Shown here: positions 4,933-63,647 of the stretch, one piece after another
Layout of the letters: each line of letters starts with the position of its first letter
Position numbering within the stretch: position 1 is the stretch's first letter
Virus record (IMG/VR): IMGVR_UViG_3300028591_000117
Coordinates: 1 to 64,000 of that record
DNA: 64,000 nt
Direction: 5' to 3' (one strand)
Origin: a virus
Taxonomy: Duplodnaviria > Caudoviricetes
Notes under the pieces: model-generated
Databases searched by the model: none
Told to the model about the DNA's origin: nothing
What the model saw: the letters and a program-made list of their open reading frames with translations, nothing else
Position numbers and translations under genes: made by a program

Positions 4933-5049
4933 TAACCTACATCTCCTTTCATTTTAAATTTTCAAAGAACATTTCGATAAAACGATACATAAATTTAGTG
5001 CCTAGTATTTCGCTTTATCTGTATATATTATACCACTTTTTGACTAAAA

Positions 5050-59000: not shown

Positions 59001-60526
59001 TTATTCGTCTATATTCCAATCATCAAATTTATTAAATACTCCTTGTAGCTCTTCTTCTGTAATTAACTTACCTTTAGTAAATGCCCAAAGTAAAGACCTT
59101 CTTAAAGTACTCATAAACTTCTGTTCATTATCATAAGTAGTATAAGGTAGTGTATTCATCTTACCAAATAAACTTTCAATAAGCTTCATATTCTTCTCCA
59201 TACATAATCTTTTATATGTATCTGTAGTTCCAAATGCTTCAATTATATCTATATATTGTTTACTAAATTCAGTATCTACACGAGTTATTCTACCAATTAT
59301 CTGCATTATCTTAGCTATATCATAAGGTAAATCATAAAAAATAATTGCATTAGCTTTTTGAAGATTTATACTCTCACCACCAGCTGAAGTTATAAGTAAA
59401 GGTTTATCTACTGCTATTATATCTTGAATTCTTTTTCTTTCAGACATTGATACTCCACCTTTAATTATTAATGTATTTGAAACTCCTAAATCTCTTTTAA
59501 AAGCTCTTATTAAATAATCTAGTCTCTCAAGAACTGATACATACTCACAATATATTATAGTTGGTTTATTCTCTCTGATATTTTGTAATAATACTTTTAA
59601 TAATAATTTTTCTTTATTTGAAATTTCTTCTCTATCTATTTCATCAGAAACATTATCTACAACAAATGTTATATCTCTTAGTCGAACTGACCAAAAATCT
59701 TTAGCTTTCTCAGACATTTTACCACCAGAAGCTTTTAGATAATTCTTAGTTTCAGTTTCATTAAGATGAGTTGTATGATAGTTAAACTCTAAATTATACT
59801 CTTTTTGTCTTACTATAATTACTTCATTTAAAATAGATTGTAATCTCTCTATATTTTTATATCCAACTATTTCTTCTATTGTTCTTTGAACTTTCTGTCT
59901 ATTTCTTGTAGTTTGCGTTATTCTTTTTCTATTAATAATTAAATAGTTATATTTAAAATTAGACCACGCTCCTAAAAGACTTGGATTTAATAATGTAATC
60001 ATCCAATACATTCCTTCTATATTATTTTTGCAACTAGTAGCTGTTAAAAAATATAATATACAAAATATCTTTCTTATTTGTATAAATTGTTTATACATAT
60101 TAGACTTAGGATTTTGTAGTCCATTATGACTTTCATCAACAATTCCTAAAAGTTTATGCGTTTTATACAACTCAGCTAAAGTTGGTATTGCTTTATCGAT
60201 GCATGTATTAGATATTAATAAAAATCTTCCATTAGGATTTTTAAATGATTTCTCAGTACTTATCATTGAATAGCTTACATGTAATTTTTCAGTTAACTCT
60301 TTTTCAAAAGACATTAAAGCTTTAGGTGGAGCTATAACTATAGTTATCAAATCTCTATTCTTTAACATGAGTTGAGTTGCTAAAGTAACTGCTGTATAAG
60401 TTTTACCTAAACCAGTTAAGTCTGGCCAGATATAACTGCATAAGGTCTTCTTATTGCAAAGTCTATCATTTCATTTTGTTCTTGTTTTAATGGAAACTCT
60501 TTTGATAGTGTATAATCTGGAACCAT
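59001..60526 (-). CDS. SF2 (SNF2-like) helicase, reading frame interrupted by 5 nt at Walker A
   Basis: AAGGAGGTG plus ATG at 60526 gives MVPD...LKQEQ...AVISGQT then stop. TGLGKT continues in the frame of ORF 59001-60368 (IVDESH, LTAT, GGESINL, QIIGRITR). Confidence 0.85.
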
Positions 60527-60546: not shown

Positions 60547-60888
60547 TTAAAATTCTATATCTAATTCTTTTATTACATACTCTGTAATTCTATCTAAGTT
60601 TGGTTCTAATTGATACCAAATATCTATTTTAAATACTTCATCTTTATCTGGTCTATGATGTAAACTAGTCACTAAAACCTCATGTTCAGCTTTAGACCAG
60701 TAATAATACATTAGTATACTTTTAATTCCTTCTTTTAATTTTTCATAATTATCTATTTTATCACGTTTTATTCTTTTAAATAAATCATTTACAAACCACT
60801 CACCTAAAACATTAACTCTTTCTAGCTTATTACTATTGAAATCTTCTCTAAAAGCATACCATTCTAATTTTTTATTCTTTTTCTTCAT
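60547..60888 (-). CDS. Hypothetical protein
   Basis: YYYWSKAEHE...KIDIWYQ. Confidence 0.6.
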   Translation of the reverse strand: MKKKNKKLEWYAFREDFNSNKLERVNVLGEWFVNDLFKRIKRDKIDNYEKLKEGIKSILMYYYWSKAEHEVLVTSLHHRPDKDEVFKIDIWYQLEPNLDRITEYVIKELDIEF

Positions 60889-61450
60889 AATTATCTTCTC
60901 TTTCTTCTATTAATCTATCTAATAAAGTACATGCTTGACTATACTCTCTCATATTAAAACCAGTATATGTATCACATTTAACTAAATAAGGAGTTAAATC
61001 TCTTTTAAAACCTACCATATCAGTGTCATCATCTAAAATAACCATAACAGTTTTATCAATATCATAGTTATTTTCAATCATCCAATTCTCTATCTGAACT
61101 CCTCTAGTTTTAAAATAATTCTTATTAGCTCCATCAATAACTTCTACTCTACTGTCTAAACCACTATTTCTAAGAGCTTTTTCAACATCTTTTAATTTAT
61201 GTCCTATAAGCCATGTAGATGTAATAACTATTTTTAAATTATACTCTAAACAAAGTTTATTTAACCACCTAACTGCAAATTCATTAGATACTCTTTTATC
61301 ATTAGGCCAACATAAATCGAAATAAAAACCATCTTTTTCTACCATTCTTCTACCATCAATTGGTTCTGAATATATCATGTGAGTATTTACAACACCATCA
61401 ATATCTAAAAATAATAATCTATCATAACTTAATCTTATACTAGTTACCAT
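60872..61450 (-). CDS. HAD-superfamily phosphatase (RNA-repair-associated type)
   Basis: LFLDIDGVVN, IVITSTW, RG.QI and VILDDDTDM. Confidence 0.8.
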   Translation of the reverse strand: MVTSIRLSYDRLLFLDIDGVVNTHMIYSEPIDGRRMVEKDGFYFDLCWPNDKRVSNEFAVRWLNKLCLEYNLKIVITSTWLIGHKLKDVEKALRNSGLDSRVEVIDGANKNYFKTRGVQIENWMIENNYDIDKTVMVILDDDTDMVGFKRDLTPYLVKCDTYTGFNMREYSQACTLLDRLIEEREDNYEEKE

Positions 61451-61465
61451 ACTCCACCTCAATAC

Positions 61466-61501
61466 TATTATATGAAAAAAGAGACTCAATTGAGTCTCTT
61501 T
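61466..61501 (-). terminator. Terminator of the ncRNA locus fused to a class I promoter
   Basis: AAAGAGACTCA/TGAGTCTCTTT plus U-run, followed by TCATATAATA. Confidence 0.8.
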
Positions 61502-62355
61502 AAATATATTAACTAGGTAGGAATTATTTATTTACCTACAAGTTTAAGACTTAGCTCTGTTTATTAGTTGTACTCTAATGAGGAAGGATTGATTACCTTC
61601 AAGACTGCTAGCTTTAGACAATGTAATACGGTCAAAATCTTTTTCTAAGATTTCGCGTTCCAATTTACACCTTCTGACACAGATTTGTACTGAGTGATTA
61701 ATTGCCAAACTATTATACACCTTTTTACAGGCTTCAACTGCATCTACTTAATGAAAGCTGTGTATATATGCCTCGAACACGTACATATATCACTATCATC
61801 TAGTCGCAACCATCATTCTAGACTGATTATATAAAATTTCGCTATATAAACTCGTTATTATCATAACTCTAAGTCCATTTCAGAACTGTCTATATACCAC
61901 TTACTCCAAGCAAGAGTATTCGTGCACTACATTTGTAGGAAAGTTGTCAAATCTTTCATTATTAAATATAACCATCTTATTAAACTACTATATTTATTAT
62001 TATCTGGCCAAGATAATAACATTTTATAATATAGATTGGATTGATTACCAATATATCAGTACTCAACTACCTATTTCCATTTAACACGGATTTTAGCAGA
62101 CAACATCTATCAAATTTATAGGAGCATATCTCTCCATCAACCGCGAACATTTCTCGTTCTCTCTACTGTTTAGTCGCAACACCACATGTAGACTAGAATG
62201 CATTCGATAGACTCAACTTACACTAACTAAGAATAACAACAAAACTCCCTCGGCTTTTGACCTGGCTACTTAGCTCATGACGAGTTTTTTAACTCGTGTT
62301 AGTTTCTACTCTTATAACGTCGAAATATTGTTTGAGTTACTAAGTTAATATATTT
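61502..62355 (-). ncRNA. Large structured ncRNA (about 850 nt), GOLLD/ROOL-like
   Basis: No ORF of 60 aa or more; higher GC than typical intergenic DNA here; ends form a perfect 13-bp helix; many hairpins and duplicated motifs; next to a tRNA; bounded by promoter/boxA and terminator. Confidence 0.75.
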
Positions 62356-62382
62356 TCAAAGAACTTAGTGTATTTAACACTA
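62353..62382 (-). promoter_or_regulatory. rrn-type antitermination signal: boxB-like hairpin plus boxA
   Basis: UAGUGU-UAAAU-ACACUA followed by GUUCUUUGAAAA, the Firmicutes rRNA boxA consensus. Confidence 0.75.
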
Positions 62383-62394
62383 CTCTAATTAATA

Positions 62395-62561
62395 GCTGAT
62401 AATATACTTAAGATTAAAAATAGTTATATTTGTCTATATCAAGGTACCGTCTTCGATATTCCACAGCAAACTACAGCAAATCTTCTTAATTTTGGTTTAC
62501 TGACTTCATTAAGTAGAGTAACTTAATTGAAAGTCACTCTTTTAACTAGTATACTATCAGC
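62395..62561 (-). ncRNA. 167-nt rod-shaped RNA, 6S RNA-like
   Basis: 14-bp closing stem, central bubble and apical stem; starts about 7 nt after a TCATATAATA promoter. Confidence 0.5.
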
Positions 62562-62567
62562 ATATTT

Positions 62568-62577
62568 TATTATATGA
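62568..62577 (-). promoter_or_regulatory. Class I phage promoter TCATATAATA driving the ncRNAs
   Basis: Same 10-mer at 11065, 15273, 25172, 31553, 37344, 38518, 39323, 42135, 50841, 56646 and 61466, each just upstream of a gene start. Confidence 0.7.
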
Positions 62578-62604
62578 AGTTTTTTAAACTTCCTATAATT
62601 AAAG

Positions 62605-62681
62605 TGGTAGGCAGAGTAGGACTTGAACCCACGACCAAAGCTGTATAAGAACCTCACTCTAACCAACTGAGTTATCTGCCT
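62605..62681 (-). tRNA. tRNA-Ile with UAU anticodon, CCA encoded
   Basis: AGGCAGA-TA-ACTC-AGTTGGTTA-GAGT-G-AGGTT-CT TAT AC-AGCTT-TGGTC-GTGGG-TTCAAGT-CCTAC-TCTGCCT-A-CCA. Confidence 0.9.
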
Positions 62682-62736
62682 AAAACCGTTGTTTGTTATT
62701 TAGACAGGTCCTACAACGTGAGCTGACCTCAATTAA

Positions 62737-62745
62737 ATTATACCA
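62737..62745 (-). promoter_or_regulatory. sigmaA-type extended -10 promoter for the tRNA
   Basis: TGGTATAAT; the same element occurs at about 5027, 13946 and 62899. Confidence 0.55.
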
Positions 62746-62927
62746 TAAATAATTTAAAATGTTTATACTAAATTATAAAATAATAAAACACTAGCGAGAT
62801 GTAGTTATTTAACTAGTGTTTTATTATTTTGAGAATTTCTCTACATAAGATTTTGAAACCTGTATATAAAACTAAGCACCAAATTTATATACAAATAAAT
62901 TATACCATAAATTAGTAAAAAATAAAA

Positions 62928-63647
62928 CTATTTTTCTGAAATAGTCTTATCTTCTTTCATAACAAGTTCTCTAATCTGTTCAAGTTTATCTTCAGGTAAC
63001 ATCATCATGCTATCTAATAGTTTTCTATATTCATTATTTAAACTACCAAACTGACTATTATTTTGAACAGTTCTCATTGAAACATCTAAAATGTTTGTAA
63101 TATCTTTATTTAAATTAGTTAATGTTGATGATAAAGTTTTTAAGTCCATGTCATATAAATTTGAAGGGTCAAATAATCTTTCTTGTACTTGATTTGTATA
63201 AGCAGTTAACATAGGTATTCTAGAAAGTTGCATTAAAGTCATTATAGCTGACATTTCTTTTAGACGACCTTCAGTATCAGACATAAATTTATCTACAAAT
63301 AAAGGTTTTTCACCTTTACCTGCAATATAATTAAATAGGTCTTGTATATCTTCAGGAGTAAGACCTAGTGTAAGTTCATTTCTTTTAACTAGTACTGCAT
63401 CAAGAGGTTTTTCTTCACAAATATTTTCAATATTTTCAGGAATAGTATTAAAATTAATTTCTTGCTCTAAACTATCTTCTAACGTTTTATTTTCTAAAAC
63501 TTTAGCCATAGGAGTATCTTCAAATTTAGTATCTGAAGGAAGTTTAACCCATTGAGCTTCTCCAGTTTCTTCATTACTAATTACTTCTGGATTTTCTTTA
63601 GTCTTAGTCAACATATTCTTTAAATCTTCATCTGTAATTTTCTCCAT
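62928..63647 (-). CDS. Hypothetical protein
   Basis: GAGGAGGAG RBS; 239 aa, helical. Confidence 0.6.
   Translation of the reverse strand: MEKITDEDLKNMLTKTKENPEVISNEETGEAQWVKLPSDTKFEDTPMAKVLENKTLEDSLEQEINFNTIPENIENICEEKPLDAVLVKRNELTLGLTPEDIQDLFNYIAGKGEKPLFVDKFMSDTEGRLKEMSAIMTLMQLSRIPMLTAYTNQVQERLFDPSNLYDMDLKTLSSTLTNLNKDITNILDVSMRTVQNNSQFGSLNNEYRKLLDSMMMLPEDKLEQIRELVMKEDKTISEK

Follow-up and report, generated by a model that had tools for sequence, protein, structure and literature searches.

Large phage RNAs and boxA-led transcripts

ROOL and GOLLD are tRNA-linked phage RNAs that form cages via kissing loops (PMC5737381, PMC12286853). ROOL (RF03087; PMC5737381) is large, multi-junction and pseudoknotted and is encoded in phages and prophages of Firmicutes or Mollicutes; its ends are paired, it contains an internal variable linker, and it is an accessory gene, found in some relatives and missing in others. 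In one Ligilactobacillus strain its abundance reportedly equals the level of 16S rRNA (PMC12286853). GOLLD is longer than 800 nt, phage-borne and adjoins tRNAs. Only a handful of bacterial and phage RNAs of such size and intricacy are known. The two from phages are ROOL and GOLLD, and recent work showed that protein is not needed to build their cages. Here we describe a further large RNA, encoded in a 64,000-nt stretch of DNA (hereafter the window) that represents positions 1 to 64,000 of the phage record IMGVR_UViG_3300028591_000117. The new RNA shares with ROOL all of the properties of fold, ends, linker, phage context and patchy occurrence given above, and with GOLLD its size, phage location and tRNA neighborhood. 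ROOL assembles into a homo-octameric cage (PMC12286853), which the new RNA is not known to do.

The other systems that invite comparison are transcripts headed by boxA. NusB-NusE binds single-stranded boxA, as in rrn operons and lambda nut sites. The rrn leader resembles the new locus in that the same boxA precedes a lengthy, highly structured transcript without translation, in flanks that pair into a long stalk, and in a tRNA within the same transcription unit. It differs in that the product here is not rRNA (no SSU or LSU model matches), that boxA here lies inside the stalk, and that the hairpin upstream of boxA is not conserved. Lambda nut sites likewise borrow a Nus-dependent host signal for the protection of a long untranslated transcript, as boxA would do here, but the window phage shows neither an evident N-like protein nor a partner for boxB. 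The boxA signal has reportedly also been found ahead of CRISPR arrays, in work of Stringer et al. from 2020. To our knowledge, such borrowing has hardly been studied in Gram-positive or Mollicutes-like organisms, to which the present case belongs.

A gene-free interval with a large structured RNA

Outside a single gap, all genes are densely packed on the minus strand. The gap covers 1,439 nt, between an ORF ending at 61489 and an ORF starting at 62928, and contains no ORF of more than 58 aa; an initial annotation, made from the letters of the sequence, had already remarked on an ORF-less stretch in this densely coding genome and proposed that it encodes a non-coding RNA. The G+C content is 32-36% within the gap and ~25% in its flanks, and the minus strand folds with -272.6 kcal/mol versus -218.9 kcal/mol for the plus strand. 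The body of the RNA (61491..62366, minus strand) is ~865 nt long and contains ~33 helices, including two pseudoknot helices. Its limits are set by the two strands of the terminal helix and are based on two alignments, A3 and A5. The RNA had initially been placed at 61502-62382; it does lie there, but the closed RNA corresponds to ~61491-62366. The strong terminator predicted at its end is an intrinsic terminator at 61478..61501 (minus strand), in which a 10-pair stem is followed by a T-run, and all of the local stems listed at that time are present in the sequence.

A tRNA and a conserved element are located upstream of the large RNA in the same gap. The tRNA is a tRNA-Ile with anticodon UAU (62605..62681, minus strand), and the same tRNA is found upstream of the RNA in the homologous loci L010, L170 and L171. 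Between the tRNA and the large RNA lies a hairpin element of ~167 nt that carries AAUGAAGUCAGUAAA (62395..62561, minus strand; inverted repeat I16); it is kept in L170 and also in L003, a phage without the large RNA. A promoter-like site upstream of the tRNA (62737..62765, minus strand) is composed of TAAACA, a 17-nt spacer and a TG-extended TATAAT. This site is likewise kept in L003, and a near-identical copy of it is present at 62892-62921 (repeat D1). We regard the site at 62737..62765 as the likely start of a transcript that includes the tRNA and the large RNA in the window phage.

Family members and conservation of the fold

Collection of homologues with covariation analysis and a search with Rfam models (GOLLD, ROOL, introns, RNase P and tmRNA) had been suggested as checks in the initial annotation. 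We obtained 16 distinct homologues from uncultivated gut and rumen phages of ~110-135 kb, with nhmmer E values for family matches from 1e-123 to 1e-263. The family has at least 16 members, which fall into two clades, A and B; the RNAs are 841-995 nt long, multi-junction and pseudoknotted, and all of the loci are situated in phage contigs. The protein of the HAD family encoded nearby is 45-56% identical between the clades, and the RNA precedes the HAD gene in one clade and lies downstream of it in the other. Of the first 12 loci found, ten have a tRNA ~50-450 nt upstream of the RNA. The carriers are probably large phages whose hosts are low-G+C Bacilli or Mollicutes of gut and rumen.

In order to evaluate the fold we compared the proposed partners with partners slid along the alignment. 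For 12 sequences, RNAalifold gave 140 pairs, and compensatory changes occurred in 102 of these; 94.4% of the cells were paired, versus 39-43% after sliding, and the covariation score was 0.675, versus 0.10-0.17 after sliding, a score reached in none of 500 shuffles. When all 16 sequences were used, 163 pairs were proposed, with 87.3% of cells paired (40-45% slid) and a covariation score of 0.552 (at most 0.17 slid), and compensatory double changes were found in 120 of these pairs. The fold contains 204 G-U cells and 25 A-C cells, and therefore the minus strand is the RNA strand. These data show that the fold is evolutionarily conserved.

The RNA matched no family in Rfam 15, ROOL and GOLLD included, even at E<=10. 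The GOLLD model (RF02032; cut-off 150 bits) found nothing at E<=10 on positions 61300-63000 of the window or on seven homologue loci, nor did it match in genomes G000, G011, G012, G006 and G007. GOLLD differs from the new RNA in its conserved sequences, and there is no sign here of its two-part layout, in which the 5' domain varies and the 3' domain is conserved. GenBank phages were searched with three queries, namely the window RNA, an RNA of clade B and a ROOL from a sister phage, and gave no match to the RNA; the sole match, with the window query, spanned ~60 nt over the tRNA. Single-protein searches with two flanking proteins did not lead to related loci, and the exact pattern GTTGAAGCCTGTNAAAAGGTG had no match in viral contigs. 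Two groups of candidates were rejected: a remnant of a protein-coding gene, given that no ORF is conserved among the homologues, and a group I or II intron, RNase P, tmRNA, 6S RNA or rRNA fragment, for which there was no Rfam match.

Terminal helix and internal architecture

The ends of the RNA are joined by a helix whose 5' strand (62340..62355, minus strand) overlaps boxA and whose 3' strand (61502..61516, minus strand) belongs to inverted repeat I1. The perfect pairing described in the initial annotation, between AAAUAUAUUAACU (62343-62355) and AGUUAAUAUAUUU (61502-61514), is present, and a weaker GUUCUUU pairing extends into 61491-61501, where it overlaps the 5' arm of the terminator. We estimate that ~0.1 perfect 13-bp inverted repeats are expected in 0.9 kb of AT-rich DNA, and therefore the repeat on its own is weak evidence. 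The helix is nevertheless kept among the homologues, with compensatory changes in nine of its ten pairs. It consists of 27-28 contiguous, perfect base pairs in all eight members of clade B and of 15-26 bp in clade A, to which the window contributes 23 bp with internal loops. Where the 5' motif has changed, the 3' partner has changed with it: ACUUUCUAAAA is matched by UUUUUAGAGAG in L090, and GCUCUUUG by CAAGGAGC in L322. The stalk that had been proposed for the ends of the RNA is thus a long stalk-like helix, and it may serve as a processing substrate.

Two hairpins display the same loop, UAAUCAAU. In hairpin 1 (62035..62052, minus strand; stem AUUGG/CCAAU, stem and loop together GGUAAUCAAUCC) the stem, helix 17, is 100% paired with compensatory changes in 4/5 pairs, and the motif is the same as GUAAuCAAUCC, a conserved element in the ROOL consensus of Rfam. 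Hairpin 2 (61583..61600, minus strand; stem GAAGG/CCUUC) is part of repeat D9 and corresponds to helix 28 of the 12-sequence fold and helix 32 of the 16-sequence fold. A 3' hairpin, GUAGG...CCUAC (61517..61539, minus strand; helix 29 of the 12-sequence fold), closely precedes the 3' terminal-helix strand and is likewise 100% paired, with 4/5 pairs compensatory.

Two regions have the appearance of a recurring module. The first (62085..62145, minus strand) is closed by a pseudoknot helix that pairs 62141-62145 with 62085-62089 (helix 14; 98.8% paired, 3/5 pairs compensatory) and encloses, in this order, GGUUGAUG, a hairpin, CUAUAA and AAAUCCGU. The second lies in the central domain (61672..61814, minus strand; helices 26-31 of the 16-sequence fold; covered by model R1, 135 bits), a multi-stem junction closed by pairing of 61801-61811 with 61700-61712. 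Its segment 61713-61738 is composed of GUUGAAGCC, a hairpin and GUAUAA, and its pseudoknot helix joins 61738-61742 to 61678-61682. Model R1 does not pick up the proposed first module, and an internal duplication is therefore drawn from short motifs only. A linker at 61623..61677 (minus strand; columns 830-900 of A3 and 856-950 of A5) varies in length and sequence among the homologues.

A long hairpin (61988..62034, minus strand) exposes the palindrome GGCC in its apical loop at 62006-62009. Among the 16 sequences this tetramer is GGCC in 12, GAUC in two and GUAC in two, and it is self-complementary in every one, a pattern that comprises only two independent changes. A loop that is always self-complementary suggests homo-oligomerization. 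GOLLD cages use self-interacting kissing loops (PMC12286853), and the palindromic loop here would be the same device.

The boxA motif

The 5' end of the RNA carries the boxA-type motif GUUCUUUGAAAA (62353..62364, minus strand), which is part of the terminal helix and is exact in 12 of the 16 homologues. We examined 301 genomes of the host phylum and found GTTCTTTGAAAA, followed 70-100 nt later by the 5' end of 16S rRNA, AGAGTTTGAT, in 12 of them, in multiple copies of up to nine per genome; the reversed motif, used as a control, was not found before 16S in any of the 301. The assignment as boxA made in the initial annotation is therefore borne out letter for letter by the 16S-leader boxA of the host phylum, a match to the phylum rather than to an identified host species. 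Additionally, in a relative of the Mollicutes MAG, a hairpin together with the boxA motif is present at four contig ends. The boxA string itself returned no match in a literature search.

A small hairpin, AGUGU-UAAAU-ACACU, directly 5' of boxA (62367..62381, minus strand) had been named boxB. The hairpin exists, but it recurs only in L010, the nearest relative, and therefore it is not a family feature. The boxA motif is not invariant either: within clade A, L171 has GGUCUUUGAAAA and L175 has GUUCUAUUGAU, and L090 has lost the boxA consensus while keeping both the pairing and the RNA. It follows that selection may see the pairing instead.

In the window, boxA is not adjacent to the sole good promoter; the two are ~370 nt apart, with the tRNA and the 167-nt element between them. 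In clade B, promoter-like hexamers end ~20 nt upstream of the boxA motif. Downstream of boxA follow ~850 nt of untranslated RNA, and the motif is buried once the terminal helix forms.

A second exact GUUCUUUGAAAA, unpaired, is found at 4959..4970 (minus strand). A TG-extended TATAAT promoter precedes it by ~45 nt, and it belongs to the 5' leader of the operon comprising the portal gene and a 153-aa ORF. This leader boxA resembles a nut site, and phage G012 has the same arrangement. The two exact copies in the 123-kb genome of the window phage are both on the coding strand and compare with ~0.07 expected from composition, by our estimate; the reversed motif has no copy in the same 123 kb.

Relationship to ROOL

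Five sister phages (G002, G003, G004, G006 and G007) carry canonical ROOL, with scores of 150-154 bits against an Rfam gathering cut-off of 99.1 bits. These ROOLs occupy the place of the new RNA and begin and end with the same boxA helix, which carries GUUCUUUGAAAA. In the portion of the published ROOL alignment that was inspected, there is one boxA-like start, which suggests that boxA is not general in ROOL; ROOL and boxA were not mentioned together in the literature that we searched. Three genomes with the new RNA, G000, G011 and G012, lack ROOL, and the central domain of the new RNA, found in G011 with E 2e-23, is absent from G003, G006 and G007. We observed no genome with both RNAs among those compared, and the complete relative G009 has neither; this either/or pattern is seen across few genomes.

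The new RNA, at ~865 nt, is longer than ROOL (~580 nt), and it has beyond ROOL a 5' domain of 200 nt, the long hairpin with the palindromic loop and a four-hairpin domain. It could be a very divergent, enlarged ROOL, and hence not new in kind, that kept the core and gained ~290 nt of domains, perhaps by duplication of a core module. The shared niche, the mutual replacement among sister phages and the common boxA-bearing terminal helix are consistent with such an origin. Furthermore, two motifs are common to both RNAs. The 11-nt GUAAUCAAUCC in the hairpin loop of the ROOL consensus occurs twice in the new RNA, and UUGAAGC, a 12-nt hairpin and GUAUAA follow each other at equal spacing. By inspection, the order of elements is also alike: a terminal helix, a two-part hairpin, a multi-hairpin junction, a large domain that closes before the 3' hairpin, and a variable linker. 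The two modules, for their part, share GGUUGA, a hairpin, UAUAA, AAAUCYGU and a pseudoknot helix. Searches for homology, however, do not bear this out. The Rfam ROOL model is silent at E<=10 on positions 61300-63000 of the window and on seven homologue loci, and it has no match over the whole genome of the window phage. Conversely, on the ROOL loci the nhmmer profile of the new family finds nothing beyond the boxA strand, model R1 gives only noise, and model R2, built on the 5' domain, recovers the boxA strand only, at noise level. A colinear chain of ten ROOL consensus motifs does not rise above dinucleotide shuffles in six of seven sequences, the GUAAUCAAUCC loop is missing from the sister-phage ROOLs, and, as noted, R1 misses the first module. 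We therefore consider descent from ROOL rather unlikely, although it is the strongest of the alternatives. The initial annotation had left the choice between a GOLLD or ROOL relative and a new class; novelty and, by context, the ROOL/GOLLD kind stand, while homology to ROOL was not shown in these tests. Judged from its sequence, the RNA would represent a new family of the ROOL/GOLLD kind.

Proposed function and alternative explanations

On balance, we think it fairly likely that 61491-62366 on the minus strand is the gene of a large, structured non-coding RNA of an uncatalogued family, headed by boxA and serving as a ROOL-like scaffold. In the window phage the RNA would be co-transcribed with the tRNA from the promoter near 62740, and in the other clade it would have its own promoter ~15-20 nt upstream of boxA. 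The nascent boxA would recruit NusB-NusE of the host along with the remaining components of the rRNA anti-termination complex, which would allow the polymerase to read through ~865 nt of untranslated, hairpin-rich RNA and could assist ordered folding. As the 3' strand emerges it would pair with the 5' end into a stalk that buries boxA, and the perfect 27-28-bp stalk of clade B would suit trimming by an RNase III-type enzyme. The mature RNA may then act as ROOL presumably does in the sister phages, as a protein-free, self-associating scaffold, with self-association at least via the apical loop GGCC, GAUC or GUAC. More tentatively, it is possible that the RNA forms a class of its own, the third among self-assembling, ornate phage RNAs and independent of ROOL and GOLLD, and that, together with ROOL, it is made like rRNA, that is, transcribed and chaperoned with the help of boxA and Nus factors and trimmed at the stalk.

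It is improbable that the RNA is instead a decoy, an abundant boxA transcript that titrates NusB-NusE or RNase III and lowers host rRNA synthesis, with a fold that provides stability. Its 5' motif matches the host rrn boxA exactly, ROOL is reportedly as abundant as 16S rRNA in the Ligilactobacillus strain mentioned above (PMC12286853), and the boxA in the mRNA leader indicates that the phage does deal with the Nus system. The finished RNA, however, buries boxA in a perfect duplex that can reach 28 bp, whereas NusB-NusE needs a single strand; ~30 conserved helices and pseudoknots exceed the needs of a decoy, and L090 keeps the RNA without the boxA consensus. A DNA-level or mobile element (either a non-autonomous element bounded by terminal inverted repeats or a site for replication or packaging) is very improbable: the inverted repeats at the ends, the variable presence among close relatives (L003, L008 and L174 lack the RNA) and the differing position relative to the HAD gene would fit it, but the G-U over A-C asymmetry fits only a minus-strand RNA, compensatory changes are spread across 33 helices and not confined to the ends, and the locus sits in a coding-strand unit from promoter to terminator, in one copy per genome and with no target-site duplication seen. 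A MITE-like element was rejected on the same asymmetry, compensation, single copy and lack of target duplication.

Implications for phage RNA biology

The scaffold-like RNA that we favor occupies the same slot as ROOL in close phages, which offers a natural comparison of two RNAs. The traits common to both, namely the boxA stalk, one loop motif and a self-complementary loop, point to functional essentials, and the size of the new RNA permits in vitro transcription for cryo-EM. Both RNAs start with the rrn boxA, which also occurs in an mRNA leader, and this suggests a route by which such RNAs are produced. The same placements suggest that phages of Gram-positive or Mollicutes-like hosts make use of Nus-dependent anti-termination. 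If the reading as a third class is true, RNA cages would be tied to the production line of rRNA.

Layout of the non-coding locus

The source phage record is an uncultivated genome of 123.5 kb, the first 64 kb of which form the window; window G+C content is approximately 26%, and the minus strand carries all genes. Between an ORF of 239 amino acids (62928-63647) and a HAD_SAK_2 domain gene (60872-61489) lies a gap of 1,439 nt, which contains no ORF longer than 58 amino acids and whose G+C content exceeds that of its flanks. Along the minus strand, this gap comprises a TG-extended promoter with a short conserved RNA-like unit that has its own terminator hairpin (62777-62921), a second copy of the TG-extended promoter (62737-62765), a tRNA-Ile(UAU) gene (62605-62681), a 167-nt hairpin element (62395-62561), a small hairpin (62367-62381), the boxA motif GUUCUUUGAAAA (62353-62364), a hairpin-rich stretch of approximately 850 nt on the 3' side of this motif, and a strong intrinsic terminator (61478-61501). 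The positions and local stems from which the initial annotation had proposed a large non-coding RNA were all found in the sequence, as was the perfect 13-nt complement between 62343-62355 and 61502-61514. The predicted folding energy of the gap RNA is far better for the minus strand than for the plus strand (-272.6 vs -218.9 kcal/mol).

Several neighboring elements were also recorded. The non-coding unit of approximately 100 nt behind the first promoter (62777-62921, minus) has at its end a perfect terminator-like hairpin of 18 bp (62777-62830). L003, a phage locus without the large RNA, matches it at 77% identity over 199 nt, and the unit may represent a small RNA in its own right. The 167-nt element (62395-62561, minus), located between the tRNA and the large RNA, carries the conserved sequence AAUGAAGUCAGUAAA and has no Rfam match; it is also present in L003 and in a second related locus, L170, while L010 has its 3' arm. 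HAD_SAK_2, the domain encoded by the gene adjoining the large RNA (60872-61489, minus), is the phosphatase domain of the "Swiss Army Knife" RNA-repair proteins. The loci L003 and L007 have the window's gene order here, and a few genes beyond the HAD_SAK_2 gene they encode a ligase and a metallophosphatase. The SNF2-type helicase appears in the window as a short ORF (60416-60526) plus a main ORF (59001-60368, both minus); this two-ORF form (36-37 and 452-492 amino acids) is found in this phage and three relatives (L171, L174 and L009), and a single ORF of 480-502 amino acids in L003, L007 and L173.

A conserved RNA fold in two phage clades

In order to collect homologs, we gathered relatives through the neighboring HAD protein and then applied an iterated nhmmer profile to their non-coding stretches, which yielded homologous sequences with E-values of 1e-123 to 1e-263; scanning IMG/VR for a conserved pattern contributed another four. 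The family has at least 16 distinct sequences of 841-995 nt. Eight of them, including that of the window, form clade A, in which the RNA is encoded upstream of the HAD gene. The eight members of clade B are approximately 49% identical to the window in nucleotide sequence; in the four that were identified via the HAD gene, the RNA is encoded approximately 700 nt downstream of this gene, and the clade B RNA has its own promoter-like hexamers ending approximately 20 nt 5' of the boxA motif. An Rfam 15 search of the gap at E<=10 returned tRNA matches alone.

These sequences share a strand-specific, pseudoknotted RNA fold of approximately 865 nt, which bears out the proposal of a structured RNA. 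For the first 12 sequences RNAalifold predicted 140 pairs, 102 of which show compensatory double changes; pairing is seen in 94.4% of cells, against 39-43% if the partners are shifted by 1-3 columns, and the covariation score of 0.675 (0.10-0.17 when slid) was reached by none of 500 shuffles. With 16 sequences, two pseudoknot helices and an extended terminal helix were added, giving 163 pairs with 87.3% of cells paired vs 40-45% slid and a covariation score of 0.552 vs at most 0.17. In each of the two pseudoknot helices 98.8% of cells pair, and compensatory changes occur in both. The excess of G-U over A-C cells (204 vs 25) identifies the RNA strand as the minus strand of the window and rules out an explanation of the conserved fold at the DNA level. 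A protein-coding reading of the gap was rejected, as no ORF is conserved. Two structural modules in the new RNA show likeness at the motif level.

Since the RNA is absent from the close relatives L003 (HAD protein 74% identical), L008 and L174, it is an accessory gene; L003 nevertheless retains the 167-nt element and the small-RNA unit upstream. A tRNA is linked to it in 10 of the first 12 loci found. Beyond this genome, a sequence look-up among other boxA-led large phage RNAs found none resembling the new family. In L010 (1035-2029), the closest relative's RNA, the 5' domain contains an internal tandem duplication of approximately 90 nt (columns 179-271 of alignment A3), indicating that this region tolerates insertions. 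In three clade B phages (L015, L098 and L102), genes for a tmRNA (107-110 bits) and for several tRNAs are located no more than 5 kb from the large RNA. In L170 (585-625) and L171 a T-arm-like GGTTCAATTCCACC lies approximately 15 nt upstream of boxA; a full tRNA was not called there, and the element may be the remains of a tRNA or serve as a signal for processing.

The boxA motif and the terminal stalk

The motif GUUCUUUGAAAA is exact in 12 of the 16 homologs, the variants being GGUCUUUGAAAA, GCUCUUUGAAAA, GUUCUAUUGAU and ACUUUCUAAAA. Phage contigs of this group are binned with "Bacilli bacterium" and "uncultured Mollicutes" MAGs, and we surveyed 301 genomes sampled from the phylum of those MAGs, using the reversed motif as a control. 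The identical motif, followed at 70-100 nt by the 16S 5' end AGAGTTTGAT, occurs in 12 of the 301 genomes, with up to nine copies each, and the reversed control gave zero matches in the same set; many of the remaining genomes are likely MAGs without rRNA operons. One relative of the Mollicutes MAG has four contigs that end approximately 80 nt after a hairpin plus the motif, resembling assembly breaks at rRNA repeats. Together with the 16S-leader occurrences, these breaks identify the motif as the rrn-leader boxA of this bacterial group, in agreement with the boxA originally proposed at the 5' end.

A second exact copy in the phage (4959-4970, minus) is unpaired and lies approximately 45 nt downstream of a TG-extended TATAAT promoter and approximately 20 nt before an RBS, in the leader of an operon with a 153-aa ORF and the portal gene. 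The complete clade B phage G012 has the same order of promoter, boxA (L244, G012:C1:3645-3656) and RBS, so that the arrangement is kept between two distant phages of the group; from base composition, an estimated 0.07 exact copies would be expected by chance in 123 kb. Because an unpaired, promoter-proximal boxA in an mRNA leader looks like an anti-termination site, its presence argues for reading the motif as boxA, and as more than one strand of a helix; the leader copy itself is a candidate site for Nus-dependent anti-termination of protein genes. In the ROOL-bearing phage G006, the ORFs in the 150 nt or more that follow GTTCTTTGATAA (L245, G006:C1:19015-19026, minus) are all very short, and this may be a further boxA-led RNA.

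The motif also takes part in pairing of the RNA ends. In all eight clade B sequences the first 27-28 nt, including the entire boxA and the 3 nt before it, pair unbroken with the 3' end. The terminal helix of clade A has 15-26 pairs with internal loops; that of the window has 23, its outer part overlapping the 5' arm of the terminator. Motif changes are matched by changes in the 3' partner (e.g., in L090 and L322), and therefore the terminal pairing is also under selection. The stalk noted earlier is thus present and covarying; its likeness to rRNA processing stalks lies in the long perfect duplex at the foot of a large RNA, which may likewise be cleaved.

A self-complementary loop

A long hairpin (61988-62034) has a seven-base loop. 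Twelve of the 16 sequences have GGCC as its central tetramer, two have GAUC and two GUAC; the two middle bases change together and self-complementarity is kept. As neighboring bases are unable to pair with each other within a single molecule, this is the pattern expected of a loop-loop contact between two RNA copies. Such a contact would resemble the GOLLD cage, which is held together by self-interacting kissing loops (PMC12286853). The pattern hints that the new RNA may self-associate, with two independent changes only and a roughly estimated chance of ~4% at random. The loops of hairpins 1 (62035-62052) and 2 (61583-61600) are identical in clade A and mutually complementary in clade B (e.g., ACCAAU/AUUGGU in L314).

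Relation to ROOL and GOLLD

A motif search of the Mollicutes MAG identified a canonical ROOL (RF03087; 153 bits vs a cut-off of 99.1) on a phage-like contig that also encodes a HAD homolog, and ROOL was present in four of five further related IMG/VR phages without the new RNA near the HAD gene (150-154 bits). No ROOL was found in the new-RNA genomes G000 and the complete G011 and G012, and R1, the covariance model of the central domain, had no match in the ROOL phages G003, G006 and G007 (positive control: G011, E 2e-23). In the few genomes that could be checked, ROOL and the new RNA replace each other, with the complete relative G009 carrying neither.

The ROOLs of sister phages start with GUUCUUUGA and end in its complement, forming a stalk of 26-30 bp. 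The Rfam ROOL consensus has no conservation at this position and the stored part of the published alignment contains one boxA-like start; the boxA stalk is therefore a trait of this phage group common to two RNAs, not of the ROOL family. The conserved ROOL loop motif GUAAUCAAUCC occurs twice in the new RNA, on hairpins with different stems (AUUGG/CCAAU vs GAAGG/CCUUC). Both RNAs also have UUGAAGC, a 12-nt hairpin and GUAUAA immediately ahead of the closing strand of a junction, and the order of elements, judged by eye, is similar.

The original suggestion of a GOLLD/ROOL relative or a new class holds as to kind, with no Rfam family matched, but the formal tests of ROOL homology were all negative. 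The Rfam ROOL model found nothing at E<=10 on new-RNA loci, nor did an nhmmer profile of the new RNA on ROOL loci, where R1 and the 5'-domain model R2 returned either noise or just the boxA strand; when ten ROOL consensus motifs were chained colinearly, the result did not exceed shuffles in six of seven sequences. The GOLLD model (RF02032) had no match to the new RNA. We consider the chances of common descent with ROOL about even, and assign the new RNA to a new family that is similar in kind to ROOL and GOLLD. The RNA would be transcribed under Nus anti-termination, its stalk would be cleaved, and it may serve these phages as a functional equivalent of ROOL.
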